A stretch of 63,998 nt of DNA, counting the filler, from Ionaspis alba (lineage: Eukaryota): NCBI GenBank assembly GCA_964255285.1. It is 9 parts of 9 records of this genome, joined end to end, with 100 filler letters (N's around TTAATTAATTAA, not from the genome) between each part and the next. Parts side by side here need not be neighbours in the genome. Positions count along the whole stretch, not along the records: positions 51,007 to 58,125 come from CAXUUL010000852.1; 8 more parts are not named here. One strand, given 5' to 3'. Positions within the stretch are counted from its first letter, which is position 1; each line of letters opens with the position of its first letter. A program made the translations under genes and the position numbers. Shown here one piece after another: positions 4,061 to 62,822 of this stretch. A model generated the notes under the pieces. The model did not search any database, was not told where the DNA came from, and saw only the letters and a list, made by a program, of their open reading frames with translations.

Positions 4061-7058
4061 TCACAAATCCTCCACAAACCGACTATCCCGAACAGGGCTC
4101 CCCGCAGCCCCCTGTCTCCCTTGCGCTGCAAAACTCGGTGCCGGCAATGGCAAAGTCTCCGCATCAAAATGATCCCTCGCCTCCTCAAACTCCTCCACAC
4201 TGCCCTCTTCCGTCGTGCTGGTCGTAGTTTCCTGTTTCAGTGCCGGCGGACTAAGCGCCGAGGAAGCTTGGGCAGAGGTCGAGGGATGGATGCGTTGGTC
4301 GCGACTGCGACCGCGAGTAGGAACGAAGGTGCTGGGAGGATGCGTCGGCTCGTCGCTGGAGAGGGAGGATATGGAGGTTGAGCGAGAGCGGGGAGGGTGT
4401 GAGGATAGGGCGAGGGGTTGGGGGGAGGTGGCGCCATCGGTGGGAACTGCGATGGTGGCGGTGGTGGCTTCGGGATAGGAGGTTGTCGTTGGTGTCGACA
4501 CCGGGGGTGTTTCGGCTTCAATGGGGCCGGCGGGGATGATTACTGTGCTAGGTGTGTTGGCTGTGGGCTTGGGTTCGGGAGCAGAGATTGTTTCTTTGGG
4601 TGCGTCGGATTGCTTGACCGACTTGCTACCGTGGCGTGAGAATTTGGTTTTCAGCCATGAGGAGAGCTTTCCTTGGTCGCCTTTCGGGGAGGTGGGAACG
4701 TTGTCTGCTGTAGTGGCTGTTTTGCTGCTTGAGGCCGGCGCAATACCTGTCGATATTGGCTCAATGTTTCTGGATTTCGTGAGAGTGGTCTCTTTTGCTT
4801 CAGAAGTCTCCGCTGATGGAACGGTAGATTCCTGTGTTTTCGGTTCGACCGGTCGCTCTTCCGATTCGACAGGTTGTACGTCCGCCACATTGGGGGTGAC
4901 GACAGGATTAACGAGGATGATTGGTGAGTTGGGTTCACTGGTAGGAAGAAGTCCCGTTGTCTCAGGATTGAGGTCTGTGATCGGTGGAGTATCGACAATG
5001 GTTAGAGGTGCGAGTTGGGGAATCGAGTCCAAAACAGGTGAGGTAGGTGAAGCTGACGTCGTTGGCTCTTCCTTGCTCGTCTCAGCGACCACGACAGGTG
5101 CGACTGCTTTCGGCTTGTGCTTTTCCTCATCACGACGCCGTTTCTCCTCAGCCTTTTTGGCCCTCTCCTCCTCTTTCTTAGCTCTTTCTTCTCGTTTCTC
5201 CTCTTCTACCGGATTGTCAGCATGCTTAAACAACTGTCATTCGAGGAACAACTTACCTTTAAACCGCTTCCACTCTTCTTTGGTTTTAGTACTTCTCTCC
5301 CTTTCAAGTCTCGCCTTCTCTTCTGCTATTTGCCGCTGTTCTTCTGCTTGTCGTCTCAGTTCTTCATCCCTGGCTCGCTGCGCCTCAGCCTTCTCCGTAA
5401 TCTCATCAAGTGTCGGTTGCACTCTTGCGGCTGCAATAGCGTCGACCTCAGACTGATCCATGAATTTCCCACCTCCAATGTTGACCTTTCCGTGGTTGAC
5501 CATTCTAGCACCACTCTCCGCTTCGGCTCGTGCTTTGGCTTTGGCTTCCCATTCGGACATCATCGCAGGTGAGACCTTGCCTGTCTCTGCGAACAATTTC
5601 TCATCCATTCCATGCATGCTTTTAGTAACATTTCGTTGAGCTGCAGCCATCAAGGCTTCCCTATCCTTCTGGCGCTTCTTCGCATCAACTTGGGCTACTT
5701 TGCTATTGAAAATGGACATCTGAGATCGAATCTGTTGCGAGCGTTCTTCATCAGACTCTGGAAGTTGGCCGTCACTCGATGCTCGTCTTCTCATACGCCC
5801 TCGAACGGAGAGACGGGATTGAACCGGCGCGTTTGTACCGTAATAATTCCTATATGCGGCGTTCTCATCATGGAGCTTGGCAAGTCGCTCCGCCGCTAGC
5901 TTTTGGGCAGCCTCTTGGAGGTTGGCGTACTGCGGTGAAGGCTCATATGGCGCATCTACCGACGACGTCATAGAGGACCGCCGCTTATGGACAGAGGTAG
6001 CTGCGTAGTGGCTATCAGAACGCTGGACTCCAGCTTGCGACTCGAGCGTTTTCTGTTGGACATCATACATCTGCTTAGCCATAGAAATGGCAGCAGCTCG
6101 CAGACCCGCTTGGCGATTCTTTTCCTCGACCTCAGGAGCAACGGGTGGGTGGGAAGTATACATCTCTCGGCCGAGATTTGTTATTGCTGCGTTGTGAATA
6201 CGAGTAGCGTCTTGGGAAGAGAGCCCGGGCAAGTCAGTCGGAGCCGTCCGAGGATTTGCGCTTTTCATGGAAGGTCGGTTTGCAATTGTCGCTGCGTTCA
6301 ATGCGTTGGCCGCAGCATTGCTCGAATCAGGATAGAGACTGCCAACAACAGGAGATGAGCCAGACCGTGACCTGCCCGACATTGCACCAGTGGCTGCCAT
6401 GAGGGCACGACTGCTGCCATCTGCAGTGTATCCATAATCTACAGAAGGGCTCAGATTCTTCATCCTCATAGCCTGACCTGCTGCTGAATTTCCTTCGGCG
6501 GATGGATCGGGTCTCCATATGTCAACCTTTCCGCCATGATTTGCAGCGATAAGTGCAGCTTTCGAACCCGCCGCACTCATTTCCGGATGCCACAATGGTG
6601 CCACCTTGTAGTCTTTGGCAAGCATCGCGGCCTTACTTGCAGGTGCAGATTCGCCTGGCTTCCAATACTCAAATGACTTGTGATGCTGATTTGCTAGACT
6701 TGCAGCTGCACCAGCTGACGAGTCCTTGTTTGTGATGCCGACAGAAGGGAAGGACGGTAGATCACGGGGATTTGCATATTTCAGCGAGGTCGCGGCTCCT
6801 GGGGAAACATTGTAAGCGGAAGCAGCTGTATTAGTGCCGACATCGTCCTTACCTGCGGACGATAGCTTGTTATCTGCGTCCAACGGAAATTTGCTGTCTT
6901 TCGACTTTCGGTCGACATTCGTCACATAGAGTGCAGCGGTCGCAGCTGTCACGAGTTAGTCCCAACTACCATGAGAATGAGCAGTATCGAAATGCTTGTT
7001 TACCCTGGTCTTGTAGTTTCTCGACCTTCGCCCCTTGAGTTTGGGTCGCAGCATCCAT
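4061..7058 (-). CDS. Eisosome protein 1 (Eis1/Seg-family), multi-exon
   Basis: ORFs 5237-6952 and 4061-5233 join through short introns, with a first exon MDAATQTQGAKVEKLQDQ from ATG 7058. Family motifs include AATAALY, SSAGAATSLKYA, NLQEAAQKLAAERL, GKVNIGGGKFMDQSEVDAIAAARVQPTLDEI and C-terminal RDSRFVEDL. Confidence 0.8.
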
Positions 7059-7234: not shown

Positions 7235-7335
7235 ANNNNNNNNNNNNNNNNNNNNNNNNNNNNNNNNNNNNNNNNNNNNTTAATTAATTAANNNNNNNNN
7301 NNNNNNNNNNNNNNNNNNNNNNNNNNNNNNNNNNN
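7235..7335. other. Artificial scaffold-joining linker (N-run + TTAATTAATTAA + N-run)
   Basis: The six-frame-stop 12-mer lies at 7280-7291. Identical linkers occur at 14610, 21901, 29190, 36457, 43705, 50951 and 58170. Confidence 0.98.
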
Positions 7336-14565: not shown

Positions 14566-14665
14566 NNNNNNNNNNNNNNNNNNNNNNNNNNNNNNNNNNN
14601 NNNNNNNNNTTAATTAATTAANNNNNNNNNNNNNNNNNNNNNNNNNNNNNNNNNNNNNNNNNNNN

Positions 14666-18287: not shown

Positions 18288-19635
18288 CTAAGTAACAGTA
18301 TACCCCCCATCAACCCTCAAATCCGCCCCAGTAATATACCCCGCCGACTCCGACAACAAGAACGTCACCGGCCCCATCAAATCCTCCGGATGTCCCATAT
18401 GCCCCTGCGGAATCAGCGACGTCCACTGCTTCTGCAAATCCGGATTATCATCCATAATCTTCTTCGTCCTACACCCTCAAAATTAGCCCANNNNNNNNNN
18501 NNNNNNNNNNNNNNNNNNNNNNNNNNNNNNNNNNNNNNNNNNNNNNNNNNNNNNNNNNNNNNNNNNNNNNNNNNNNNNNNNNNNNNNNNNCGCAGCGCAG
18601 AAAGGGAACTTACAGTGCCGTGAGCATATACCCCGGACTAATACAATTAACCCTAATACCCGCATGGGCCCACTCGACCGCCAAACTCGCCGCCAGATGC
18701 CTAACCGCCGCTTTCGCGGCATTATAAGGCGCCTGTGGCTGGGGCACGTTGACGACGGCCCCGGACATGGACCCGATCATGACGATGCTGCCAGGGGCTT
18801 TGCGCTCCATGAGGTGGCGCGCCACGCCCACGGCGAAGAGATAGGTGCCGTCGACGTTGACGCCCCAGAGTTTTTTCATCCGGTCGTAGGGGTAGGAGAT
18901 GGCGTCGTAGTTTTCGGTGAAGCCGGCCGAGGTGATGAGGTTGTCGATTTTGCCGTGTGAGGCGAGGATTTCGGCGATGGCGCTGTTGACGGAGGTGGGG
19001 TTTGAGACGTCGGCGTAGTGGGCGGTTACTTTGGGGGTTCTGGAGGTTGATTAGTGGAGGAGTTGGGATGGGAGGGAAGGTGGGGGGCAAGAATACTTCT
19101 CGGCGCCGGGGTTTTCTTGGACAAAGTGCTTCACTAGATCTTTTGCTTGGCGCTCGCCTTCTTCCTCTGCAGAAAGCTATGAGCACACTTGCCAATTAAG
19201 GTGGCAATAGGTAGACGTACTGTTCAGGTCGACAATGGCTACATCTGCGCCACTGACTACCAATGCCTGGGACATGACCAGTCCTAATCCTCTCGCTCCA
19301 CCGGTTACCACACCAACATTGCCTTCCAGTGAGAAGGAAGCCAGCGTTCTTCTGAAGTGCATTCCGCCTCTGCCCTGAACGGGCTTACTTCTGGGCAATT
19401 CGCCTTCTTCTGGGTATTCGACACGGACATCTTTATCCGTACGAGCAAAAGAGCCTTGGTGCTCTGGATCAGTCTGGTTGCCCGTACGCTTGTCCTCTTT
19501 GTACAACTTCGTCGAACAGGTCAATGGACGACGAATGTGTATTGGCTTGTAAGTGATGGTGATCTGAGAGGTGGTGCGAGGGGTGGAGGATGTGATGAGG
19601 CGAGAAGTCTGGCGGAATGCTCGGAAGCCAATCAT
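18288..19635 (-). CDS. Short-chain dehydrogenase/reductase, D-arabinitol 2-dehydrogenase-like, with mitochondrial-type presequence
   Basis: It has the TGGARGLG cofactor motif, SMSG...PQPQAPYNAAK (YxxxK), VNCISPGY and C-terminal GADLRVDGGYTVT. The N-terminus MIGFRAFRQTSRL is Arg/Ser/Thr-rich. Several introns are present, and one spans a 100-N gap. Confidence 0.88.
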
Positions 19636-21788: not shown

Positions 21789-21956
21789 CGTAGGTTTGGA
21801 AGCTCATAAGTGCTTCAAGCTCATACTCGGCGCCATGGTGAGAGTCATGTTGTTGANNNNNNNNNNNNNNNNNNNNNNNNNNNNNNNNNNNNNNNNNNNN
21901 TTAATTAATTAANNNNNNNNNNNNNNNNNNNNNNNNNNNNNNNNNNNNNNNNNNNN

Positions 21957-29070: not shown

Positions 29071-29434
29071 ATCTGCTATGATCGCGATTAAATCCTTCCA
29101 ATTCTGCAGATCTTGCGCACGTCCATTCATCCCCATGTTCACGAANNNNNNNNNNNNNNNNNNNNNNNNNNNNNNNNNNNNNNNNNNNNTTAATTAATTA
29201 ANNNNNNNNNNNNNNNNNNNNNNNNNNNNNNNNNNNNNNNNNNNNTGTTGGGCTGGAGCCATTTCGCAATTTTAATATGATTCTGTAGCTAGCATTATTT
29301 TCGCGAATAGAGAATGTGCGCTTTAGGCCTTGTCAATGCGTTTTATCTGTCTTAAGTTCCAATACACCAAGTGGCCTAAGTTCGGTATAACGAGCTCCGT
29401 CTATACTCCCATCGCTTTTGGTTCCTTTCCCCTC

Positions 29435-32234: not shown

Positions 32235-33830
32235 TTGATACTTCCACCGATCATTCAGGGGACGTCGTCCGTCGACCCGTCCCTTCGACTGCCCTCGCCA
32301 CACATGATTCGCACGTTACCCACCTTCAGTATGGCTCCATCGGCGGACGAGAGAGCCCCATCACCACTTCCGCCACTGGGACATGACATTTCAAGACCAT
32401 CGTCAACGTCAACCCAGAGCGATGTACGTCAGCAGCAGCAACAGCAGCAATACGCGCATGGACAAAATAGCCTCAACGTTGCCCTTCCGGGACTGTCAGC
32501 TTTAGCATCAGTCGCGTCAGCTCCGTCAGAGCAGCTCAGGTATGTGGTTTGCGGTCTCCCACGTGTAAGACCACGGTGGCCCGTTGTTTGGTCGCGCAGC
32601 GAAAGCCGAGGTCTCCCACGACAATGCTGTTTCGTGGACTACAGTGCAAGTAACTAAGGCTGACCACTGTTTCTGATTTCTGGCAGAGGATTCAGCAGTA
32701 TTGGCCAGAATGTGACCTATTCCACAGCGTCGCCTACTCCGACTTCAGTTAGTGGTCAGGGAAACACTCCTGTGAGTTGCACCAAGTTTCGCGTTGCAAT
32801 TCTTATCGGCTCGCAAAAACTCTCCTTCCACCATCCAAATCCTTATCGCGACACAACCCAAAATATCCAAGAAAGTCCATCGATCATTCTGTCCCCTTTT
32901 TCTTGGTCATGGCGACCCTCACTGACAGTGATCATGGAAATTTACAGCCCGTATGCCAAAATTGCACGACCTCCACGACGCCTCTCTGGAGAAGGGATGA
33001 GATCGGTTCGGTCCTATGCAACGCTTGCGGCTTATTCCTGAAGCTACATGGCCGGCCTCGTCCGATAAGCTTGAAGACCGATGTCATCAAGAGCAGAAAT
33101 CGTGTTAAAAGCGCTGCTCAGGGTCAAAAGAAAAAGGTATGGGATTTGCGCAACTGTCCCGTATAACCATATCGAGAGGCTAATAATCCTTGCATAGTCT
33201 TTATTTGACAGCAGTGGTGTTCCAATATCGCGGTCGGAGGCCGGTACTCCCCCGCCAGGTCACCAACCCCATCGTCGAGCATCGCAGAAGAACTCCTCTG
33301 GTGGCTCGGATCGCTCCAACTCTCCAATCTCCCGCACGAACACACCTTCTCTCCAACATCCCCCAAACATCGCACCACAACACATGTTCGACCATGCCTC
33401 CCTGCCCGACCACGCCTTCACGCACTCTCCATCCCTACCCGCCCTGAACCTGCGACACCCATCCCCAGGCTCAACCACCTCTCTCAACGACCGACACCTC
33501 GAACCATCACAATCCTACGAAGCTCTCCAGCAATCCAACACAACTCTCAAAACCCGCGTCAGCGAACTAGAAGTCATCAACGAGCTATACCGAGGTCGCG
33601 TGCAGCAACTCGAGCAGAACGACCGACGCCAAGAGATGGTCCATACCCAGCTGCGACAGGCTCTGGAGCAGTCGCAGCAGCGCGAGAACGACTTGAAGCG
33701 GAGATTCGACGACCTCGAGCAGGAGGTGGCCGACTTGCGGGACTCGGACTTGCCTCATTCCAAGAAATCTCGCCTTTCTGATCCTTCGGAATACCCAGAT
33801 CCGCCCCAATCTACACCGCATGCTCGCTAG
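32235..33830 (+). CDS. areB: GATA transcription factor AreB/ASD-4 (GATA zinc finger + leucine zipper), 4 exons, alternative starts
   Basis: The zinc finger is [50 protein letters not shown] and the zipper is [19 protein letters not shown]. Introns are 32540-32686, 32772-32947 and 33137-33197. In-frame starts are TTG 32235, ATG 32304, ATG 32331 and intronic ATG 32909. Confidence 0.92.
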
Positions 33831-35677: not shown

Positions 35678-36512
35678 ACGTCGTGTAGGAAGTTCTCCGG
35701 TTTTAATAGTGTTATATCCTTTTTTTTGCTCGCAGTGTTAGGTTGGCAAGTTCCCGAGTGAGGTTGCGCGCGTAATTAAAAAACTGATCATGAACTTGCG
35801 GGTCTGGGCCGACGAGTTCCTCCTAACAGCTTTTTCTATAGTCTCGTTCCTCTTCAGGATCTTGGTGGGGTGAAGGCGTAGTTGCTGCATGCAGTTTGTC
35901 TCGCCGTTTAGCATCTGTATAGGGCTGTGTAAGGTATCTGCGCAGGGTACGGTGGCTTTGGTCACTGCGTGGCGATAGTCAAATGATAGAAGAGTTGCAA
36001 CAGTATGAATTACTATTATAAATTACTATTAACTATCTAAAGGGTTGGCGATGTCGGATTTATTCTTATGAAAACTTGACGCTAATTTGCGATAGGTTTA
36101 GGAGCCTCGCGATCTTATCAAACCGAACACATTACCGTACCGGGGAGGCTTGGCATACTTCCGGGGAGACCGGGTAACTCGATTGACCCTGGTCATCGAC
36201 CCAAGCAAGAAAACTCTAAATAAGGGCAGCCGCGTGTGTGTTCTAATATGCGTTCATTCAAACCACGCTGAACCTATTCGGCCTTACGGAGCCGTACATT
36301 ATAAGTCTTGTCAGTACGCTAAAAATGCCTTTTACAAAGGCTTGTCTTGGCGAGGTAGATTGATTATATTAAATATTTAATTAATTATTATACAGATTGT
36401 TTAATTGAATCTNNNNNNNNNNNNNNNNNNNNNNNNNNNNNNNNNNNNNNNNNNNNTTAATTAATTAANNNNNNNNNNNNNNNNNNNNNNNNNNNNNNNN
36501 NNNNNNNNNNNN

Positions 36513-43068: not shown

Positions 43069-43760
43069 AGGCAATGGAACCATCGCCATCATTATAAGAA
43101 GAAACGGGTGCTTAGACGTCGTCTAAGTCCTACAAGAATGAAAGAAATGGATTTCAAGCTTCAGAGCACATCTAGAAGCCTGTCTTCAATACTGATGAAT
43201 CCAACCGTGAGATACAAGAAACATAACGAGATACGGGCCGTTGCGCATATACAAAGACCGTGGCAGTAGCTGAATATGAAGTCAATGGTCATGTACCAGC
43301 ATGGAAAGGCAGTAAGGAAGAACCAGCACTGCCAGCTTCAGCTGCAGATTGATGGAGCTAACGGTGACATCGTCGAATGGTATCATCATGATTATCCAGC
43401 TGAGCTTTCACCAAATGTTGGACATCTCTTGCCGTTCTCGACTTTCAAATCACTCAGAGACAGATAGGGCCAGTTCCGAATGCCCATTGGATCAGAAGAA
43501 TCCTCGCAATCTCCCAATAGCCCCCTGCTAGTGGTGCGCAGCTGATACTAGTAAGCCCCCTTTCTCATAGTAGACCTAGGCAGTGGGGGCGAGATCAAAT
43601 CGTTGAATGACGCTAACTAGGCTCTCTCTGTTTTGCCCTGGGATTTAGAAAGATCGGTACNNNNNNNNNNNNNNNNNNNNNNNNNNNNNNNNNNNNNNNN
43701 NNNNTTAATTAATTAANNNNNNNNNNNNNNNNNNNNNNNNNNNNNNNNNNNNNNNNNNNN

Positions 43761-47817: not shown

Positions 47818-49037
47818 TTAGCTCCCGATCCTCCCTCTTCCCCTTCCACCAGCCGGGAAGTTCTTGGCACTGAGCAAGGCGCCTTTGAATCCTTTGATCT
47901 CCGTCTTGACCTTTGCAATCTCGTCCTCAACCATAGCTATACCAGCAACGCCTGATCCAGCCCCATGTACTAGACTATCGGGCGCGGATCGCAGGCGACC
48001 ATACCGCACGTCATCAAGATAGTTCAGCAAGTCCTTCATGCTCTGTTTTAGGCTTTCGTCAGACTCAGTGACAGAAGACGACGAGTCCAGAGTCGAAGCA
48101 AGGTGTGTATGAATGGCATGCAGGGAGTGTTGGTGGTTAGCGGTCGGTGTTGCTGGCTCTGCGCCGTCAAGCGCTGGATGGGAAGATGAAGAGGATAGGG
48201 CTGGGGAGGGAGGCGGAGACGTTTGTGTACCTGTGTCACGATGGAAAAGCTCTGTTGGGTCCGAAAATATGGAGTCTATATCCTCTGAAGCTTCGCCGTC
48301 TCTGGTGAGATTCAAACCGTGAGAGTGTGGAGGTGGTAGGACGGAGACAACGCCGGAGAGTTTCTCGTTCAGCATGTGAAGGTTCGATAAAGCGGTCTCG
48401 AATAGTGATTGCCGAGCTTCTGTTAGGGAGTCGAGCATTGGTGTGAGGATATAAGTCGACGCTGTGTACATTGCAGCTGAGGTTGCGAGAGTGGCGTAGA
48501 GGGACTTGAGGAGGACGGGAGTGGTGAGGAGGGGTGGTGGGGGCAAAGGGCGGAGGAATTCCGGGTATGTGATAATTGGAGGGATTGATGAGGGCTCTGG
48601 CGAGGAGGAAGACGACGAAGTCGTAGACTCAGAGGAAGCGGTAGACGGCGAAGATGCTGGCTATAATGGGGTAAACTTTGGAATCGAAGTGAAGTGAGAA
48701 CGATATCTACCTTGGCTCCGGGAAGGGTCGGTGGTGGAGGAGTAGTTGAGGCTTCGATGTTCTTAGATACACCAAGGAGGCTGTGGATCTCTTCATTCGT
48801 CAGGCCTTTGGTTTCGAGAAAAAAGATCTTGCGGTCAGCAGATGCATCTCGTATACTTTCGTCTTGAAGAAATTTGGAAGCTTGGTCGATCAAGGTGGCT
48901 CTGGAGCTACTGGCGTCCTCAGAAGGTTTCGGGTCTTCAATGCTTGCGCCAGTCGTTCGATTTGGAGGTTCTTCGGAGCCTTCTGCGATCCCTTGACGCT
49001 GCCATTGGGGTATTGATGTGCTCTTTGAGTCTACCAT
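47818..49037 (-). CDS. Peroxin Pex14/17 (Pex33)-like protein with Pex14 N-terminal domain (2 exons)
   Basis: Motifs are LIDQASKFLQDESIRDASADRKIFFLETKGLTNEEI, PPIITYPEFL, DPTELFHRDTGTQT and C-terminal KTEIKGFKGALLSAKNFP. Confidence 0.82.
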
Positions 49038-49680
49038 TGCTGTGGTTGAAGTATGAAGCTCTAGAATCGGTTGTCATTGATTCAGCATCATCAATTGCAA
49101 AAGATGCCTCGGCTCGAAGACTTGGCGACGACATCTCAAGACTTGTGAGAACTTGACCAATCAGGATTGCAGTTGAACCAGGACAAGCATTCCCTGCAAT
49201 CTAGCACCTTTGTTAGCAAACACATACATTGTACCAGTGGAGGATAGAGGAGTCGCGTAAGCAACGCCGCAGCCTCAGCAGATTAGGAGTACCACCGCGA
49301 TCAAACGTGCACGATTGGACTAGGCAGAACCGCAATAGTAGGGGATTGGCTAATATGTATGTTAAGGAATTTACTTGATATTTGACTGCAATGTTCTAAG
49401 TGGTGCCTTCCATTCTGCCATTATTTCCTGAATTTCCACCTTGAGGTCAAGAATGACAAAGGTCTCTTGTATACACCACATTTCAGTGCCTGTAATTCCA
49501 AGCGGCGGCCGCCTGCATCACCAGCATGCTTGACCGAACGCGATTCCTTTATCTTCCATCCACCTAATCCTCCAACATTTGAGCGTAAATTTTCTCAATT
49601 TGCCTACAACATGCAACATCTGTTCTCGATATAGTCATCAAGTATTTAACTACTTACGATTTGATCACATCCCTGTTGTC

Positions 49681-50906: not shown

Positions 50907-52738
50907 NNNNNNNNNNNNNNNNNNNNNNNNNNNNNNNNNNNNNNNNNNNNTTAATTAATTAANNNNNNNNNNNNNNNNNNNNNNNNNNNNNNNNNNNNNN
51001 NNNNNNGAGAAGGGAGTTCGGTGGATGCTGAAAGGGTTCGAGGGCTTGTTTCATGAAATGCAAACACACCTGGCACTGGGCGCTTTTCCTTCCATCTCCG
51101 GATGTCGGTGGAGTATTGACTCCCCCTGACAGGACCAGCAGGAAAAATTATTATTGACGCGTCACTTCTGCTCTACTCATACAGGTATTCCTTCGGTCGA
51201 AGTCAGCCGAAGAGTCTCGGCTACGTGAAGGATCGAGGCTTGTTATACGGACCTTCTTTCTCTTATGGACAGGCAGTCACTTAATTTCTTCGATGAAGTC
51301 ACGTTGTCTACCATTCATGCAGGTGAAGAATAGATTAGGAGTATCATATCCAGCCGTTATCTGATGCACGAGCACTATAGAATATGCGGTGGAATGAATT
51401 CTTCACTGTTAGTTTACCAGCAGACTTTGATCGGCGACCGTGCTCGACTGCGATGCCGGCATCATCCCAAATACAATCACAGAAGCATCCCTTTAGTGCT
51501 TGAGCCTACAAGCTACTAAAACCATCTGACGCGCACTCTGCATTCCGCTTTTCAGGGTTTTATATCTCACATGGGCCAGCGCTTCCGTTTGTGCTGTTCC
51601 ATCGTAATTTACATCTCATCCAGCACTCCGATAGTATGGATCCTATCCCCATTGGTCACACGTGAAACGCACCATTTATACAGAGAAACATGACAGCTTC
51701 GATGAAGTTTCTCGGGATGAACACATCACCATTCACTCAAGTTACTCCAAACTTAATCTATGCGCTCCATCTCTTTTCCCTCCATCTCTTTTCCCAAATG
51801 TTTGACAGAACCCCTCGTGCATGCACGTGCCCCGCACCCATCTACCGTTGCACGACGAAACAAGAGCAGGCTACGCAACATGAATCCAAGAGCTAGGACC
51901 TCGAGTTCCTGCATGGGTCCAAAGACCTCTTCACTCTATTTATATTGTGTAGTTGCACAAGAGCTCCACTCAGATCCTCACGATTATTGGAAAGTCGACC
52001 ATTACCGGAAGATTCAAGGTTGTTGTGCGTTGGCGACCTCAATGTCGCGGTCTTTTGATCCTGTTCATTGTCTGCTGCTGCGATTTCTCGCATTGTTTCA
52101 TCTTACAACAGTTAAGGAAACCGTCCTTGACCGGACCTTCAGATCTCTGGTGTCGGTTGTAGAGGACACAAGTTCGGTGCATCAGCCAATCACAGTCATT
52201 CAGTGTTGAGTCGTCAAATAAGGGCACAGCAAGTGAGCAGATATCAGTCTGACATATTAGTCACGCGTCCATCACTTTGAAGTCGTCGAAACTAGGCAGG
52301 ATCAAGTGACAGGGTCAACTATAACCAAACTGACAACCCCGCCATGCACGGTAGAAAATACATTGCCTGAATGCCGCTCATACATTAAAGCACAGACGTC
52401 TTCATGGATTCCCCAGAGAGTGAATCCTAACTTCTCTAAGCGCCATGCAGAAAAGTCGAAGACGACTATGGGCCTTGCAATCGCTCAGGCTATATCCCGT
52501 CTTTATGCCCTGACTGCGTGAGACCATATTGAATTCCTCAGAAGAATACGTAGCTAGAAGCACGACAGAGGCTTGATGATGCAGTCTCGACGTTAATCTG
52601 GCTTCCCATCTCTTCGATAGTTCTTAAATACTGTCGATTTTGAAGATCCGATCAGGACTGGCCAAGCTGTAGCCATATCACGAGGAAGGCTAACGAAGCA
52701 GGCGACCTTCATCAAGTCCTACCTTCTCCTGCAAAACC

Positions 52739-54490
52739 TCATTTCCTCTCCTCGTTCCTCCTTTCTATGACCCTCAGGACATCAACTGCACTATTCTTAT
52801 CCCCCTTCTTCTTTCCCCCTCTCTTCCGCTTCTTCCCGTCCTTTCCCCCAATTGCCTCGTTCTCTTCCCCCTCATCATTCCCGCCCTTCCAAACAGAAAG
52901 CTTGACTCTCTTCGCACCATCTTCTTCCTCTTCTTGTGCATCCTCAAAACGACTGCTTCCAAACCCGAGATCCATGTCTTCGGCATCCCGGTCATGGGAC
53001 TCTAGCATTTTTCTGCGGCGAGCAAGCTTCGCAGCTTCGGCTGATGCTTCATTGGGGGTGTTGGTGGAGGATGAAAGGGGTGAAATGGTAGAAGCCTTCT
53101 TAAGAGCGGCGAGAATGGTAGGGTCAGTTAATGGGTTGGTGCTTTCGACTGAGTGGTTGTCCTTGGGCTGAGAAGGATCATTGAAATAGTTGCGAGAGGT
53201 TTGCGTCAAAGTTGGTGGAGGAGGTGGCATGTCGGCCTGATGGTCTTCAATATCAGGAGCAGATTCGGGTGTTGTAAAGTCTTTAGTCGGCGCAGGTGGG
53301 GTACCATCGTTCTCCGTTGTATCCTGCTTCACAACGCCGTCTTCGTCCGAGTTCTCGTCTTCATCTTCATCCTCTATACTTCCAAGCGGGTCGTAATCTG
53401 CACCAACACCCTCAAAGATATCTCCATCCCCCTTTTCCAAATCGACTACCGGCGCGGTTTTCAATACAGGTGCATCCATGCCCAATGGCGCAACATCCTT
53501 GTCCGGCATCAACAATCCATTACCATTTACACCACTTGTATTCTCTTCCGGCCCTTCGACTTTCACCTTTCTAACCTTCTTCTTTGTCCTCCCCTCCGCA
53601 TCGACCGTAACCAATAACTCCCTTCCTTTCTCATCCCTCTCAATGTGTGCTCCCGGCATCTTCTCGCCCAGCTTCCGAAATTTGGGTCCCAGCGCTGGTG
53701 TTTTTGCTTTCTTCTCCTCTACTGCCTTTGCCCTCGCGGCTTTCAACTCACGTAGAATGTCATTCCTGTTCCGTTTCTTGCCCGCGATCGGCGCAGGAGG
53801 TGCCATCTTCCCCTGCTTCATGCGCTCCTCTTTGACGACAGGTTTGACCTTCTGCTTTTCCACATCCTCCAAACCGGCCTCCACATCCATCTGCATTTCC
53901 TCTTCCTCAGTCTCTCCCTTTGCAGCTGCCCCTGGCTCTCCCAGAACATCTACTCTCTCACCCCTCCTCACCCTTTGCAGAAGGCCCCAATCCAGTCCCT
54001 TGACCAAATGCACATCCCTGACCTCCCCTCCCACAATCTCATCTCTCAATTTCTCAAAGGTTTCCCTCTCCATTTGGCCTAGCTTCACCATCTCCTCCAA
54101 CGCCTGTATCCTTGACGCCTTATCATCTTCCTCCGTAGAGGTGCGCGTCCGCGTGCGGTCGGTGTAGCCAGCAGCGAGTTTGCTGCCTTTAGGAGCGGCC
54201 GAGGAACGGAACTTCTTCGTTGGCTGGGAGGTGGCATTTTGAGCGGCGAGTTGAGAAGCGAAGGATGAAGAGCCGGAGGTGCCAGTTACGGATCGGCTTT
54301 GAATATTGTCAGTGAACGGAGGAGGTAGCTAGAAGAAGTGTTCGCGGACATACGGGGTCATGGGGATATTGGCGCGGAGTCGAGAGCCCAAGGTTTTGGA
54401 AGCGGAGACATCGGGTCGAGAGCCAGGAGTGGTATTGGAGGGGTGGGAGGGAGTATCGAGGACTAGGCGGCGGAACTGTCGATTATTCAT
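52739..54490 (-). CDS. RED-like (RED_N domain) spliceosomal protein
   Basis: It starts MNNRQFRRLVLDTP with an intron near 54300-54350. Motifs are KKFRSSAAPKGSKLAAGYTDR, HLVKGLDWGLLQRVR, DIFEGVGADYDPL and DLGFGSSRFED. Confidence 0.85.
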
Positions 54491-56465
54491 TGTCGAGGAG
54501 TCTTAAAATTATAAAATCACGGAAGAGAAAGCAACGCTGGCATTTTTGCTGCCTGGCTTGTACACCTGCGGAGAACTCGACAGTTGAGAAGCATCATGTT
54601 GGAATCAACCGGTGATGAAATCCAGGATCAACCAGGCTCAGTTAGAGTTTCGGCACTAAGCAATATTTGAAAACTGAATTATTTCGGATTTCGGATGGTC
54701 AAACTTGTGAGAGTCCCCCTTCCACTAAGTTGTTATACATGATGATAAGGTTGATTCGTTTAATAAACGTGAAAATCATAGTTTTAGCATGATCGGCGAT
54801 GCGGTTGGGCTGTAGGATTTCCAAAGGTCTAACCAAAGCAGCTCCCCTCTATATCCGATGGATGTCGCCGACACCAGCCAGCCTTGTGATGACATTTCAG
54901 CAATTGCTCACACAGTTTCGATAGATGTGTCATTCTCGTCGACTGGTAAGATGATAGTAGTCCATACGGTTGAGGGTCCCGAAATCGTGAATCTGGTTTC
55001 GTTCTTGTCGTCCCTAATTCCTGCATCGCAAATATTCGCCGACAAGGCTGCTATTCAAAGGTTGACGCCCTAACTCCTTGTTGAGCCGAGTTGGGCTTCA
55101 AGGTATATCAAGATGTCGAAGGAAGCTCCTAAGTCTGGCCGGATGCATCAGGCTCGTGTCTCCATCTCAAAAGTTTGGCAGCGACTGAACGTATCGCGTG
55201 ATCCTCGCCATACTTCCATCGAATCTGCAATCGACTCAATACCTCCGGTCACCACCACAAGCTTTGCGCACGGCGCAGATGTCCATACAGAAGAATTCGC
55301 ACAAGGTTCCTCAAAGCCTGAGTCAGAATCAAGGCAGCGACGCATAAGATTCGCGGCGGATGTGAAGAAGCCTAAATCTAGCTCAAGTCAGCAGCATGTC
55401 AGATACGAGGAAGAAAACTCTTTTGACAGCCGAGTCTACTGGGCTGGCTTTTGCAAGCTCTGTGCTGGGATTTCCAGAGAGGCGTTGGAAAGTGATGGAG
55501 GCTACGCTCATGTTGCTGATGCTTTGAATCTACGTGCTTCGGGATTGAATTGCGACCTTTGCTTTCTGTTAGAGATGGCGCTGTTCGTATCAGCGAGGAG
55601 GTATGCATCCGATGAAGAAATACCGGACGTTGAGACAGCTGTTGAGATGCTGCCTACGCTTATTCAAAAAGACGGATACGTCCTGAAAACACCATGTCCG
55701 ATCATCCTTGCTTTATATCCCGGGTCAATGTTCAGGCCTCGCGAGCTTCACATAGGGACCAGGATCCAGGAGAAAGCTGGAGGTTTATCACAAACCACCC
55801 AAAGCCTTGCAATGGATATCAGTCTCGGTAAGCTCCTCTTTCATGGCGAGAAGGAGCCAGTCCCTTTACTGCCACGGCTTCCAAATCGCGACCTCTTCAA
55901 GCGTTTTGGAGAGCAGCTGTGGGAAAGAAGCGACAACTCGGAGGCAAGAGAGAACGTTCCTCTTCCGACTCTCGTTCTAGATATGGGAAACCCTCTTCGT
56001 AAGAAACATAATTACGTGGACGATGATGTGAACCTCGCATTTGGATCTGGTCGTGAAGGCGAGTATGCCGCCTTGAGCTATTGCTGGGGCGGTTATCGAG
56101 GATTTTTGACAGAGCGGGCATCACTTCGAGACCGGTGCTCAGGCATTAACTTCGATGATCTTCCCAAACTTTTCCAAGATGCCGTAATCGTCACCAGGAG
56201 TCTGGGTATCAGGTACCTTTGGATTGATGCTTTATGTATCATACAAGATGATAAAGACGATTGGGATCGAGAGTCGTCTCGAATGGCATCCATCTATCGC
56301 AATTGCAAAGTAAGAATAGCCGCAACGGCTGCCAAAGACCCTACGAAAAATTTTTTCCCTCCAAAATCGATTGTGTCTTCCGTGAGAATCATGCACTTGG
56401 AAGACACGGAAGGCAACAGCCCTGACGATTCGGACTCCTGGGGAACTGAGTTTTTGAGTTCCGAA

Positions 56466-56561
56466 GACAGCGAACACAGCGGAGACCATCGTCTTTCTAT
56501 AGAGGTTGGTTCTGATAGTGAACGCAGCGGAGACCATAGTCTCTCTGTAGAGGTCGGTTCT
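56466..56561 (+). repeat. 48-bp tandem duplication inside the HET domain
   Basis: The two units encode DSEHSGDHRLSIEVGS and DSERSGDHSLSVEVGS. Confidence 0.9.
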
Positions 56562-57300
56562 CTCGAGCATGGAAGGGCCAATAAACGCTTCATTACCCTA
56601 CCTAAGTACTATGCAGAAGATGTCGACAAGGCGCGGCTGAACACCCGTGCATGGGTCTTGCAAGAACGTCTATTAGCTCCAGACACCATTCACTTCTGCT
56701 AAGACCATATCTATACAGAAAATTCTGCCGGTGTTTTTGGCGAGGACGACCAGGCTCAGCTTTTTGGCTTCACAAGTTGCATTGAGAAGAGCAGAGTGGG
56801 GCCCTCCAGATTACTACACTCCGATGACGACCAGGGACATAGGACTAGTCAATCGTTCGATACCAGCAACTCCAGGCTCCAGATTGTTGAAATATATTCT
56901 GATTGCAAGATCACTTATGCTACAGATAAGCTTATGGCCATTGCGGGCTTGGCTGAGGATAGACGTATACGTGGTGAATACCCATATCGTGGTTCGAGAT
57001 ACTATTTGGGAATGTGGGAAAAGTCCTTACTTCAAGACCTCCTATGGACATCCCGCGGCCCCCAGAGACGGAAGTTCCTTGATCAATTGCGCCTTCCGTC
57101 CTGGGCATGGGCTGCATATGAAGGTTCTCTCACATTCCTCAAGCCGGACGAACCCCATCTTAAGAGGGTGGAGTATCGTAGAACAATACTCGTTGCTGAA
57201 GTTGAGGTTTTTGAGCTGGTAGGTCTCAGCGGGTCCGCACAGCTTCCGCTGCAAAGTACTGTGACAATGTCAGCTCGCTTGAGGCTTTCCGAGATCTCGC

Positions 57301-57471
57301 CACGGGGGTGACAAAAAAGTTGGCAAACCAAAAATAAGCTTCCCCCCACTAAAAGCCAACACCACATACAGTTTCTATGGGAACAAGGCTCAACTTGTTT
57401 GTCTATAGTCATAATTCATAGCAGGGGGGTAACCTTATTTTTGGTTTGCCAACTTTTTTGTCACCCGCGTG
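57301..57471. mobile_element. 171-bp MITE with 38-bp TIRs (CACG[G/C]GGGTGACAAAAAAGTTGGCAAACCAAAAATAAG) and 5-bp TSD (CTCGC/CCCGC)
   Basis: TIRs at 57301-57338 and 57434-57471 differ at one base. Flanks are 57296-57300 and 57472-57476. Excising the element plus one TSD restores the HET reading frame. Confidence 0.93.
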
Positions 57472-57925
57472 CCCGCATATTGGACTTAGAGTCAGCAGGC
57501 TACAAGATACCCTAGGCTATCAAGACGCTTTCGATGCTTCACCATTTCAACACATTCAGTGGCTATACAGGAACAGAAGACCTGTCGCATTCGCTGCATA
57601 TAATGACTGTTTCAAGTTGCGCAATGAAGGTGATAAATTACTTGGTTACCTGTCAATGGACACTATGGAGGTCCCGCCTTCTGCCGAGCTCTGGTGTGCG
57701 CATATTGTTACTCTTTGTAACAAAACATACCAAGGTCCACGACAGCGTGTATATTTACCAGGTCCAAAAATATGGACTGATGCTCCAGGCGTGCATAATC
57801 CCGGCGTGCAGAAGGAGCCTCAGGAAATTACGGAATTACATATTTTGGCTTACTGTCTTGTGCTTGCGTCAACACCCGACCAAAAGAATGAATATCGAAG
57901 GGTTGATATTACGGAAATCCTAATA

Positions 57926-58125
57926 TTAGATCGCCGCGGTCTCGCACGCGATTTCAATAAAACTCGGAAATTGATTGGTTCGGTTAAGATTTTTGTCGCG
58001 CGGTACTAGTTAGGTTTCGCACGTAATATTAATTATTTTATTATTTTATTGTAAATAATTAAGATTACGTGTAAATAATTATATTCGAACCGTTTCGTCG
58101 AATATATTTTAACACGCCCCTTTTT
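57926..58125. mobile_element. AT/TpA-rich probable repeat relic at scaffold end
   Basis: Just after the HET EYRRV motif the sequence shifts to TAA/TTA-rich composition. The scaffold breaks here. Confidence 0.35.
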
Positions 58126-58682
58126 NNNNNNNNNNNNNNNNNNNNNNNNNNNNNNNNNNNNNNNNNNNNTTAATTAATTAANNNNNNNNNNNNNNNNNNN
58201 NNNNNNNNNNNNNNNNNNNNNNNNNAGGTATAACGGGGTGCGTGGTTGGGTGGGTATTGAGTGGGGTGGTGTGGTAATGTGGAGGGAAGATGCGTGGTAT
58301 TTGAGGACGCTTTGACCCCGGCGTGTTCATCGGAACTGTTTGTCAAGATGGGGAGTATTCGTCGTTTGTTGGACATGGTCGAGGCGTTTGGGATGGCAAG
58401 GAGTCGATCGATTGGTTATACCCCTTTCAAAGAAGATATCCGCCACGAAACTAATTAATGCTTTTGAAATCGATACCGTTGTTATCGTGGGCTATGCACA
58501 TTTAGGACTTTGGTTCAATATCATAAACAAGCGCAACAGGCCCAAGCCTTGAGTCCCCCCTCCAGTCTCGACCGAGTCCTGAAAGCTCCATTGGTATCAA
58601 CCACTACTCCACAGCGCCTGTAATTGAGGTTGTTCCTCAAACCTCCGTGTTCTATAATACAGTAGTAGCTCTCATCGTATGC

Positions 58683-60122: not shown

Positions 60123-60416
60123 GGTGCAAAGTATTGAATTGAACGAGGATAACTTGCTGGGAATGTGATCCGGGTGAACGTTTCGCGAATGGTCAACTCG
60201 ACATGTGGTGGGAGATGCGGTTGTGCATAGAGTATGTGTGTACGCAGAAGTTAACCATGGAGATTGAAGTACACAAACTGCCGCGTCGCGAGAAAACCAC
60301 TTTACGCCGACGCGATGTAGGTCGGCACAAGGCACCCAACTTCTACAGCGAGTATTGCAGCAAAAACTATGTTTTGTTCTTTCGAGCCTGGTGAGTAGGA
60401 CTGCTCTGACTACCAA
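60123..60416. promoter_or_regulatory. Short bidirectional promoter with MCB/SCB-like CGCG elements
   Basis: TTTCGCG is at 60181, CGCGTCGCG at 60282 and GACGCGA at 60309, between divergent HIF1 and DPB2. Confidence 0.55.
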
Positions 60417-62822
60417 ATGGAAGGGCAATCCAAGACTCTACCCTCAAGGGCAGCTCCTTTCTTTCGCCCAGTAGCCGGTCCGAACACTACGAACCCAATT
60501 CCCTCCTCGTCTCCAGCTTTCGGTACTCCTGTACACCCTTTACGCTTGCCAAATCCTTCGATACAGCAGACTAAGCCCACGATACTCCCTATACTACTAC
60601 CGCCAGCGACATTACGGCCATTAGCATTCCGGACTTTCACGAAAAAACACAATCTCACTCTCACGTCTACTGCCCTACAGGCTTTAGCTACGTTCATTGG
60701 AAAGTTTTGCGGGTCGGGATGGAGGGAAGAGGGGCTTGCGGAGAAGGTGCTCGAGGAGACGGCGAAGAGTTGGAAGAAGGGAGGAGGCGGGCTGATCGTG
60801 GATGCAGCAGGAAATGAGTTGCAAATGATATTGAAGAGCTTGGAGGGGTCGATGAGCGGTGGTAGATTGGTACAACAAGGTGGACTGAGCCGTCACAGCA
60901 GCTTGAGCGTTCGAAGTCCTCAGGAGGACGTGAACAATGCCGCCACGAATGGGCTGAGAACAAGCCTTGACCGATCAGACACCCAGACAACCGATGACTT
61001 CTTCGGAGAGATTGCCAATGGGGAAGAGGACGAAGCCCAGGGTAAAGATCCTAGGCAATGGTTGAAGGTGGTCGGAGCCTTCGACCAACCCAGACTCTCC
61101 TACAATATGGAAAAAAAGCATTTCGAGAAAGTGCCCACTCCACCTTCGCTCTTCCCAGATCCTTCGCACAAAACACACCTTTTCCGGCACCGCTACACTT
61201 TGATACACCAGAGACTTCTACGGAATGAGTCCTTCCAAGCACCCACGATTTCACTCTCTCGAATCCCATCACTGCAGCGCTCCTCGTCTACCATTACTAC
61301 GACTCAGCAAGCGTACAAATTGACGCCAATCGCCAATCTACTTGGTCGAAGCGGGAGCAATCATATCTTACTAGGGCTCCTCACCATTTCTCCTACAGGG
61401 ACACTAGCCATCAGTGATCTGACTGGTAGCATTGCCCTCGATCTCCGTCATGCAAGGTCAATTCCAGAAAACGGAGCTTGGTTTACCCCTGGCATGATAG
61501 TAATCGTGGATGGCCTTTACGAGGAAGAAGGATCGACGGCAGGAGCTAGTCTCGGAGGTGGAGGCGGAATCGGCGGTACTATCGGTGGAAAATTCATCGG
61601 CTGGTCAGTTGGAGGTCCGCCGAGTGAGCGTCGGGAAGTCACTCTCGGGATCAGTAACCCTCACCGCGGTGGTGATACAAGCACTGGAGGTGGTTTTGGC
61701 TGGGTAGACTTCCTGGGCGTTGGGAGCGAGAGAGCTACAGGCGCCAGGATGAGGAAACAAGAGAAGAGGCTCTTTGGGAAATTACCTGGGCAAGCAGATT
61801 CAGTAAGCCGAAGCAAGGTGGTCATCCTGGGAGAAGTCAATCTCGACAACCCCAAAACTATACAGGCAGTGAGGAAGATCTTAGGTCGGTATGCTGCGCA
61901 GGCGGCAGAAGACATGCCTATGACGTTCATACTCATCGGTAACTTCGTGCAATACGCCGTCATGGCTGGTGGTGGAAGCGGTGGCAGTATAGAATACAAG
62001 GAATACTTCAACTCTCTCGCATCAGCATTGTCGGACTATCCCTCCGTCCTGCAGGCTGCCACGTTTGTTTTCGTTCCCGGCGACAATGACCCTTGGGCAT
62101 CTGCTTTCTCTGCAGGTGGTGCAACGGTCTTGCCAAGGAAGAGCATACCGGAGCTGCTCACGTCTAGAATCAGGAAAGCATTCGCAACGGCCAATGGGGA
62201 AGTCGAGAAGTCTCCATGCTCGAACTTAAATGGTGAAGCACTATGGACCACCAACCCGAGCCGCCTAGCTCTCTTTGGATCTACACAAGAGATCGTTGTC
62301 TTCCGCGACGATGTCTCAGGTCGGCTTCGACGAAGCGCTCTCGGTTTTCAGCCACTCAACTCGTCAGAAGCAGCAGACGGTGAAGATCAAGAGCCGGCTT
62401 CAGACATGCCGCCTGCGGAACGGCAAAACGGTGACTCCATGGAAGTTGACCAAGCCCTCGTAGCCGCCGAATCACACATCCCAACCTCCAAAGGGACGAA
62501 ATCCTCATCTTCCATCACTTCCGAGGACGTCCTCTCGGCACGAAAGCTAGTCAAGACCATTCTCGACCAGGGTTATCTTTCCCCATTCCCACTTTCCATC
62601 CGGCCAGTGCTTTGGGACTACGCGGGTGCTTTGCAACTCTATCCATTGCCGACAGCACTGGTCCTCATGGACCCAGAAGCGCCACCTTTTGCGGTCACAT
62701 ATGAGGGATGCCATGCTATGAATCCAGGTCGGCTTGTTGCTGAGGAGAGGAAGGGTTTGGCTAGGTGGATGGAATATGATGCTGCGACCAGAAGAGGAAA
62801 GACGAGGGAGGTGAATTTTTGA
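60417..62822 (+). CDS. DPB2: DNA polymerase epsilon subunit B
   Basis: Motifs are LPPATLRPLAFRTFTKKHNL, QRLLRNESF, LTPIANLLGR, FVPGDNDPW and KTILDQGYLSPFP...LYPLPTALVL. It is an intronless 801-aa ORF. Confidence 0.96.
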   Translation: MEGQSKTLPSRAAPFFRPVAGPNTTNPIPSSSPAFGTPVHPLRLPNPSIQQTKPTILPILLPPATLRPLAFRTFTKKHNLTLTSTALQALATFIGKFCGSGWREEGLAEKVLEETAKSWKKGGGGLIVDAAGNELQMILKSLEGSMSGGRLVQQGGLSRHSSLSVRSPQEDVNNAATNGLRTSLDRSDTQTTDDFFGEIANGEEDEAQGKDPRQWLKVVGAFDQPRLSYNMEKKHFEKVPTPPSLFPDPSHKTHLFRHRYTLIHQRLLRNESFQAPTISLSRIPSLQRSSSTITTTQQAYKLTPIANLLGRSGSNHILLGLLTISPTGTLAISDLTGSIALDLRHARSIPENGAWFTPGMIVIVDGLYEEEGSTAGASLGGGGGIGGTIGGKFIGWSVGGPPSERREVTLGISNPHRGGDTSTGGGFGWVDFLGVGSERATGARMRKQEKRLFGKLPGQADSVSRSKVVILGEVNLDNPKTIQAVRKILGRYAAQAAEDMPMTFILIGNFVQYAVMAGGGSGGSIEYKEYFNSLASALSDYPSVLQAATFVFVPGDNDPWASAFSAGGATVLPRKSIPELLTSRIRKAFATANGEVEKSPCSNLNGEALWTTNPSRLALFGSTQEIVVFRDDVSGRLRRSALGFQPLNSSEAADGEDQEPASDMPPAERQNGDSMEVDQALVAAESHIPTSKGTKSSSSITSEDVLSARKLVKTILDQGYLSPFPLSIRPVLWDYAGALQLYPLPTALVLMDPEAPPFAVTYEGCHAMNPGRLVAEERKGLARWMEYDAATRRGKTREVNF

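Follow-up and report, generated by a model that had tools for sequence, protein, structure and literature searches.

A Candidate CMCT-Type Miniature Element with a 5-bp G/C Target-Site Duplication in a HET-Domain Gene of Ionaspis alba

Described Elements with Comparable Ends

The mimp, Vader and other Tc1/pogo-derived MITEs of fungi are small, have long near-perfect terminal inverted repeats (TIRs), insert into genes and are bordered by TA duplications. Elements of a different group, CACTA/Mirage/Chapaev (CMC), differ in the length of the target-site duplication (TSD), which is 2 bp for Mirage and 4 bp for Chapaev. The wider CACTA/Mirage/Chapaev/Transib (CMCT) clade has been described as having 'CA..TG termini in most cases' and '2 to 5 bp TSDs', and the CACTA duplication of the fungal EnSpm families as being 3 bp long (PMC12730594). 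According to Kapitonov and Jurka, Transib is the only superfamily with 5-bp duplications; it prefers G/C-rich targets, and in its 38-bp TIR a CAC heptamer is followed by a spacer and then by an A-rich nonamer (PMC1131882). With respect to fungi, the survey of Muszewska et al. lists Transib as 'Absent' (PMC5751038), Kapitonov and Jurka place fungal Transib in soybean rust only (PMC1131882), and in an automated table (PMC9281073) one Sporothrix genome is credited with 'CMC-Transib 2' and three with CMC-EnSpm. Statements taken from these and the other cited articles refer to excerpts of their texts.

The DNA analyzed here is a stretch of 63,998 nucleotides from Ionaspis alba, referred to below as the window. 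It includes a 171-bp element that has the small size, the long near-perfect TIRs and the genic insertion of the mimp/Vader-type MITEs. However, the TA duplication of those MITEs is missing at its flanks. The element is probably a non-autonomous, MITE-like cut-and-paste transposon located in the C-terminal coding region of a HET-domain gene, and the features of its ends suggest that the responsible transposase was of the CMCT clade, with Transib as the nearest relative. Narrow text searches of the literature returned no match for a 16-nt string of the TIR, which is no proof of an undescribed family, and none for a fungal MITE with a 5-bp TSD or for CMC-Transib in Pezizomycotina.

Genomic Context and Structure of the Element

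The window is a pseudomolecule of small contigs chained in size order and does not represent one locus. Linkers of 100 nt each, composed of N44-TTAATTAATTAA-N44, are located at 7236-7335, 14566-14665, 21857-21956, 29146-29245, 36413-36512, 43661-43760, 50907-51006 and 58126-58225, with a spacing of 7.2-7.3 kb, and the size of the pieces between them falls steadily from about 7230 to 7119 bp. Adjacency across the linkers therefore carries no meaning, and the real context of the element is the contig at 51007-58125 (7119 bp) only. A SHNi-TPR gene that appears just downstream in the window is on another contig and, consequently, is not a neighbor of the element. Five more runs of 100 N's, at 18491, 20112, 30735, 45883 and 62823, are scaffold gaps.

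Other contigs of the window include the genes coding for Eisosome1 (5240-6955, minus strand) and a GATA/Asd-4-like factor (32753-33827, plus strand). Genes for Pex14 (48426-49073, minus strand), a RED-like protein (52742-54328, minus strand) and DNA polymerase epsilon subunit B (60399-62819, plus strand) were also recognized. The gene set on the other contigs is that of ordinary fungal housekeeping, with no transposases among the scanned ORFs. The housekeeping genes and the HET domain point to a filamentous ascomycete as the source of the DNA.

The coordinates of the element, its flanks and its host gene are collected in Table 1.

Table 1. Features of the contig that carries the element (positions along the whole window)
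Feature	Position	Strand	Remarks
Artificial contig linker	58126..58225	.	twin at 50907-51006 bounds other side of the 7119-bp contig
HET-domain gene, apparent pseudogene	55113..58009	+	first in-frame ATG at 55113; present stop at 58007-58009; Pfam and tblastn
In-frame TAA	56700..56702	+	inside conserved coding sequence TIHFC*DHIY
Left TSD copy	57296..57300	+	now CTCGC; apparent C to T at 57297, putative ancestral Pro codon CCG to TCG
Left terminal inverted repeat	57301..57338	+	38 bp, starts CACGGGG; imperfect extension to 57347
Internal part of element	57339..57433	.	coding capacity: none of note
Right terminal inverted repeat	57434..57471	-	38 bp; reverse complement starts CACGCGG; imperfect inward extension to 57424
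Right TSD copy	57472..57476	+	CCCGC; putative ancestral Pro codon CCG kept at 57473-57475
Unrelated tail	57920..58125	+	stands in for the last residues of the gene; reaches contig end

The element occupies positions 57301-57471. Its left arm starts with CACGGGGGTGAC and its right arm, read inward, with CACGCGGGTGAC. The two 38-bp TIRs are identical at 37 of the 38 positions, the sole mismatch being a G/C at position 5, and they are flush at their CAC/GTG tips. When aligned by blastn, the arms extend over 48 columns with 93.75% identity by way of one further mismatch and one indel. A 171-bp element with near-perfect 38-bp TIRs that extend imperfectly to about 48 bp had been described in the initial annotation, and both coordinates and sequence are as reported there. 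A search of the window with a 22-nt core of the TIR, at up to 3 mismatches, found the two arms alone, and two matches were obtained in none of 100 shuffles. The single-stranded DNA of the element folds with an energy of -53.7 kcal/mol versus -18.1 +/- 3.07 for 200 shuffles (z = -11.6), and none of the 200 shuffled sequences folded as well as the element. The inverted repeat is well beyond chance.

The upstream reading frame terminates at 57309-57311 with a TGA that is part of the GTGA of the left arm. One frame, of 53 codons (57312-57471), is open across the interior of the element, and no relatives sharing words with it were found among proteins of 36-118 amino acids. An Rfam scan of the contig at E values up to 1 produced no match. 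With its 171 bp, the element lacks the length needed for a protein-coding gene.

Searches of the 64-kb window with the TIR core (at most 3 mismatches), by blastn at a word size of 7 and by a self-blast of its whole length detected no second copy. Exact-pattern scans (31 and 24 nt) of a collection of bacterial and archaeal genomes gave 0 matches, a result that is nearly uninformative because fungal DNA is hardly to be expected in that collection. Pfam recognized no transposase family in 96 of the 100 ORFs of at least 110 amino acids present in the window; the remaining four lie across the HET locus in different frames.

The Interrupted HET-Domain Gene and Its Ancestral Site

The HET domain of the host gene is located at about 56064-56666 (residues 331-531 of the frame 55074-56699), where it matches the full profile (1-146) of Pfam PF06985 with 103.7 bits (curated cut-off 22.5) and E = 1.4e-29. 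This match bears out the earlier statement that the insertion is in a HET gene, to which we add that the host appears to have been a pseudogene already. The frame 55074-56699 carries on past the TAA at 56700-56702, 600 bp upstream of the element, and homologues run straight through this position, where they have K (TIHFCKDHIY in P0001), E or L. For the TAA, two origins are conceivable, a nonsense mutation and a sequencing error. The 3′ end of the gene is also lost. The tblastn alignments of P0001, P0003, P0005 and P0008 (4/4) all end at 57919, and no frame past this point continues the C-terminus of the homologues. The G+C content of the tail that follows is 0.16-0.26, with A+T rising toward its end, and this segment may mark the border of a further repeat that interrupted the assembly. 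An imperfect palindrome of 53 nt (58020-58071, 79%) is found in the tail. Considering the in-frame TAA and the loss of homology after 57919, the HET gene has at least two inactivating lesions apart from the insertion and, judged from them, would be a pseudogene whichever lesion came first.

The region of the HET domain at about 56385-56590 includes some 55-65 extra residues that are absent from P0001 and P0008. Within them, at about 56460-56561, there are two similar 15-residue units, SEHSGDHRLSIEVGS and SERSGDHSLSVEVGS, which Tandem Repeats Finder did not call at a score of 40. Bacterial-style ORF calls from this contig were also found in protein collections. They are P0026 (171 amino acids, GTG start; 56796-57311), listed without a source, and the unannotated P0004 (72 amino acids; 57794-58009), the start and origin of the latter being deduced from its near-identity to the window. 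The longest contig given for P0026, 7119, agrees with the size of the contig described above. Pieces of the HET pseudogene thus circulate as 'proteins'.

In another reading, the element is spliced out as an intron, in the manner of an introner, leaving the gene uninterrupted by it. There are 29 GT...AG pairs around the element that fuse both frames without a stop, for example GT 57308-AG 57489 (182 nt). However, none of the 29 pairs is at the ends of the element, which are CA...TG, and the donor GTGACA is poor. Moreover, splicing at GT 57308-AG 57489 removes HIGLR, a segment conserved as HVGLR in P0003, and the TAA at 56700 within conserved coding sequence remains in place. Removal of the element as an intron is, therefore, scarcely credible.

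The flanks CTCGC and CCCGC are present around the element as originally annotated. They are identical at 4/5 positions, the best value for flank lengths of 2-10; the matches at the other lengths were 1/2, 2/3, 1/4, 1/6, 2/7, 0/8, 1/9 and 1/10 (lengths 2, 3, 4 and 6-10, respectively). By itself, a 4/5 match is weak (p = 0.016 analytically), and it was seen at 1067 of 61222 window positions (1.7%). For this reason, the duplication rests on a protein-level test of the empty site, which was judged from homologous proteins that span the insertion point. Eighteen of 26 proteins were compared across the site; those omitted were P0004 and P0026, which are the window's own, and the short matches P0013, P0014, P0016, P0018, P0019 and P0020.

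The closest homologue, P0003 (231 amino acids), is about 70% identical to the window (68% in both tblastn segments, up to 71%) and is uninterrupted at the site, where it reads ...MSARLRLSKIPHVGLRVSKL.... Its tblastn alignment covers 57129-57308 and then resumes from 57473 on. While the window reads ...SEI(S)[element]PHIGLRVS..., the homologue reads ...SKI-PHVGLRVS.... The left piece of the window ends in ...MSARLRLSEIS, where S is the TCG at 57297-99, the right piece starts with PHIGLRVSRL, where P is the CCG at 57473-75, and the single Pro of P0003 (residue 61) pairs with both codons. When the S codon is left out, the end of the left piece and the start of the right piece fall on consecutive residues, n and n+1, without a gap in six of the 18 homologues (P0003, P0005, P0009, P0011, P0012 and P0024). 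By script, 10 of the 18 homologues were scored as having Pro directly after the left piece, and P0010 adds RIPRV by eye; the remaining seven have another residue at the place of the Pro or align poorly.

These comparisons indicate that the ancestral uninterrupted sequence was probably ...GAG ATC CCG CAT ATT..., and a DNA-level uninterrupted allele would read ...GAGATCCCGCATATT.... On the evidence of the homologues, the insertion comprises exactly 171 + 5 bp (176 nt), with CCCGC as the duplicated target and a left copy that probably changed from C to T after insertion. The duplication is exactly 5 bp because the left flank is not extendable past 57300 and the right flank not before 57472. The 5-bp GC-rich TSD proposed earlier, which is made of G and C only, is in this way independently backed by collinear homologues, beyond the arithmetic of the frames. 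The ORFs at 56796-57311 and 57446-58009 exist, and a 176-nt deletion fuses both in frame, as had been noted. The ancestral join, given previously as EISHIGL, is more likely to have been EIPHIGL, as the homologues carry Pro.

A single copy, in a fragmented draft and on a contig as short as 7.1 kb, is what might be seen if the structure were not a transposon at all, that is, if it were a one-off palindromic filler left by double-strand-break repair or a foldback artefact of the assembly. Nevertheless, flush inverted repeats accompanied by a duplicated 5-mer that overlaps a conserved Pro codon are canonical for a transposon, and neither process predicts a flush duplication of 5 bp. In addition, one substitution and one indel distinguish the two arms, which is unexpected for the foldback of a chimeric read. 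We consider an origin as filler or artefact very unlikely.

Affiliation of the Element and Its Significance

The element and Transib have in common the 5-bp duplication and the CAC start on both arms, and the all-G/C 5-mer, the length of 38 bp of these arms and the A-rich block at their inner end may point the same way. The duplicated target is G/C at 5/5 positions, while the G+C content of the surrounding 35 bp is 0.49, the same as the contig average. There are also differences. The heptamers of the element, CACGGGG and CACGCGG, match the Transib CACAATG at 4/7 positions, and positions 34-35 of the TIR are AT, where Transib has a critical AA. With a spacer of 22, the nonamer AAAAATAAG agrees with that of Transib at 6/9 positions and has AT at positions 5-6, and with a spacer of 23 the left arm agrees at 7/9 and has TA at positions 5-6; both comparisons, and with them the loose likeness to the RSS nonamer noted initially, are of low power, since the TIR is 47% A and matches to an A-rich nonamer are cheap. 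The host of the element is a filamentous ascomycete, whereas the excerpts cited above report Transib as absent from fungi (PMC5751038) or, among them, as limited to soybean rust (PMC1131882).

CMC elements such as CACTA/EnSpm, Mirage and Chapaev share the CAC...GTG termini with the element, CAC tips being common among them (PMC12730594), and are present in Pezizomycotina. The CMC element Sly1-1 is known in Neurospora, has homologues in Chaetomium and Coccidioides, and likewise shows a C to T substitution in one copy of its duplication (PMC4592977); the automated annotation of three Sporothrix genomes as carrying CMC-EnSpm (PMC9281073) goes in the same direction. A CACTA/EnSpm-type element could have generated a 3-bp TSD, CGC (57298-57300) and CGC (57474-57476), with the CC at 57472-57473 being part of the element or filler. 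The CGC...CGC is a perfect direct repeat, and removal of 173 + 3 nt yields a join identical to that obtained with 171 + 5 bp. However, under this arrangement the right arm would gain two unpaired bases outside the inverted repeat, and it would be a coincidence that the 'extra' CC rebuilds the ancestral C-CCG context with the conserved Pro. The flush 3-mers are CGC and CCC (2/3), and at the lengths of the CMC duplications, 2-4 bp, the flush flanks match at 1/2, 2/3 and 1/4 positions, so that the 3-bp version needs the two extra bases. Furthermore, the terminal pentamers are CACGG and CACGC, not CACTA. A CACTA/EnSpm-type origin with a 3-bp duplication is, on balance, unlikely.

The 5-bp duplication is also compatible with hAT elements of the rare hAT5 kind, as hAT families with duplications of this length exist (PMC12730594) and hAT elements are common in fungi (PMC5751038). 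According to the legend of Figure S7 in PMC1131882, though, hAT ends invariably have G as their third terminal base, which in the element is C. Moreover, hAT5 belongs to an animal lineage (PMC12730594), and the 8-bp flanks agree at 0/8 positions. We regard a hAT5 assignment as highly improbable.

Several other superfamilies were considered and rejected. A standard hAT element does not agree with the 8-bp flanks (0/8) or with C as the third terminal base. For a Tc1/mariner/pogo MITE there is no TA duplication, the flanks being ...CGC and CCC..., and for Mutator the 9-bp flanks match at 1/9. In the case of PIF, the flush 3-bp flanks match at 2/3, the Harbinger duplication being 3 bp (PMC12730594).

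The preferred reading is thus that of a non-autonomous CMCT-type transposon. In this reaction, a DDE transposase supplied in trans would bind the 38-bp TIRs, cut at the CAC/GTG tips and attack the target with a 5-bp stagger. Repair of the gaps would then double CCCGC, and the left copy would later mutate to CTCGC. The element would add an in-frame TGA and a frameshift to the gene, leading to a truncated protein.

The present data show the TIRs, the exact insertion of 171 + 5 bp, a duplication made of G and C only, and a host gene that is broken. The likeness to Transib within the clade is inferred from three features, namely the duplication length of 5 bp, the CAC at the tips and the A-rich block in the distal part of the 38-bp arms. 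The element is therefore filed as CMCT-type and Transib-like, and not as a proven Transib. Of the initial assignment to a Transib/CMC-type family, what stands is that the CAC...GTG ends and the 5-bp duplication fit Transib in the CMCT clade. The stronger statement, that a Transib-type non-autonomous element was moved by a RAG1-core-like transposase that is, or recently was, present in a filamentous ascomycete, is tentative and less likely than not. The description of the family as recently active was unsupported, because arm-to-arm identity within one copy is no measure of age; a substitution is present in one TSD copy, two further lesions affect the gene, and there is no second copy in the window.

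As it stands, the insertion is an ordinary event, the arrival of a small DNA transposon in an already decaying HET-domain gene, and the most fitting description of the element is that of a new family within a known kind of transposon. Its value is as a lead, since CAC ends together with a 5-bp all-G/C duplication are the signature of Transib. If the Transib reading is true, the RAG1/Transib lineage would include Pezizomycotina, whether through descent or through horizontal transfer. If more copies and a long partner exist, they would represent either a fungal RAG1/Transib branch or a CACTA-like lineage that makes 5-bp duplications, and either outcome would refine the classification of transposons by terminal sequence and duplication length.
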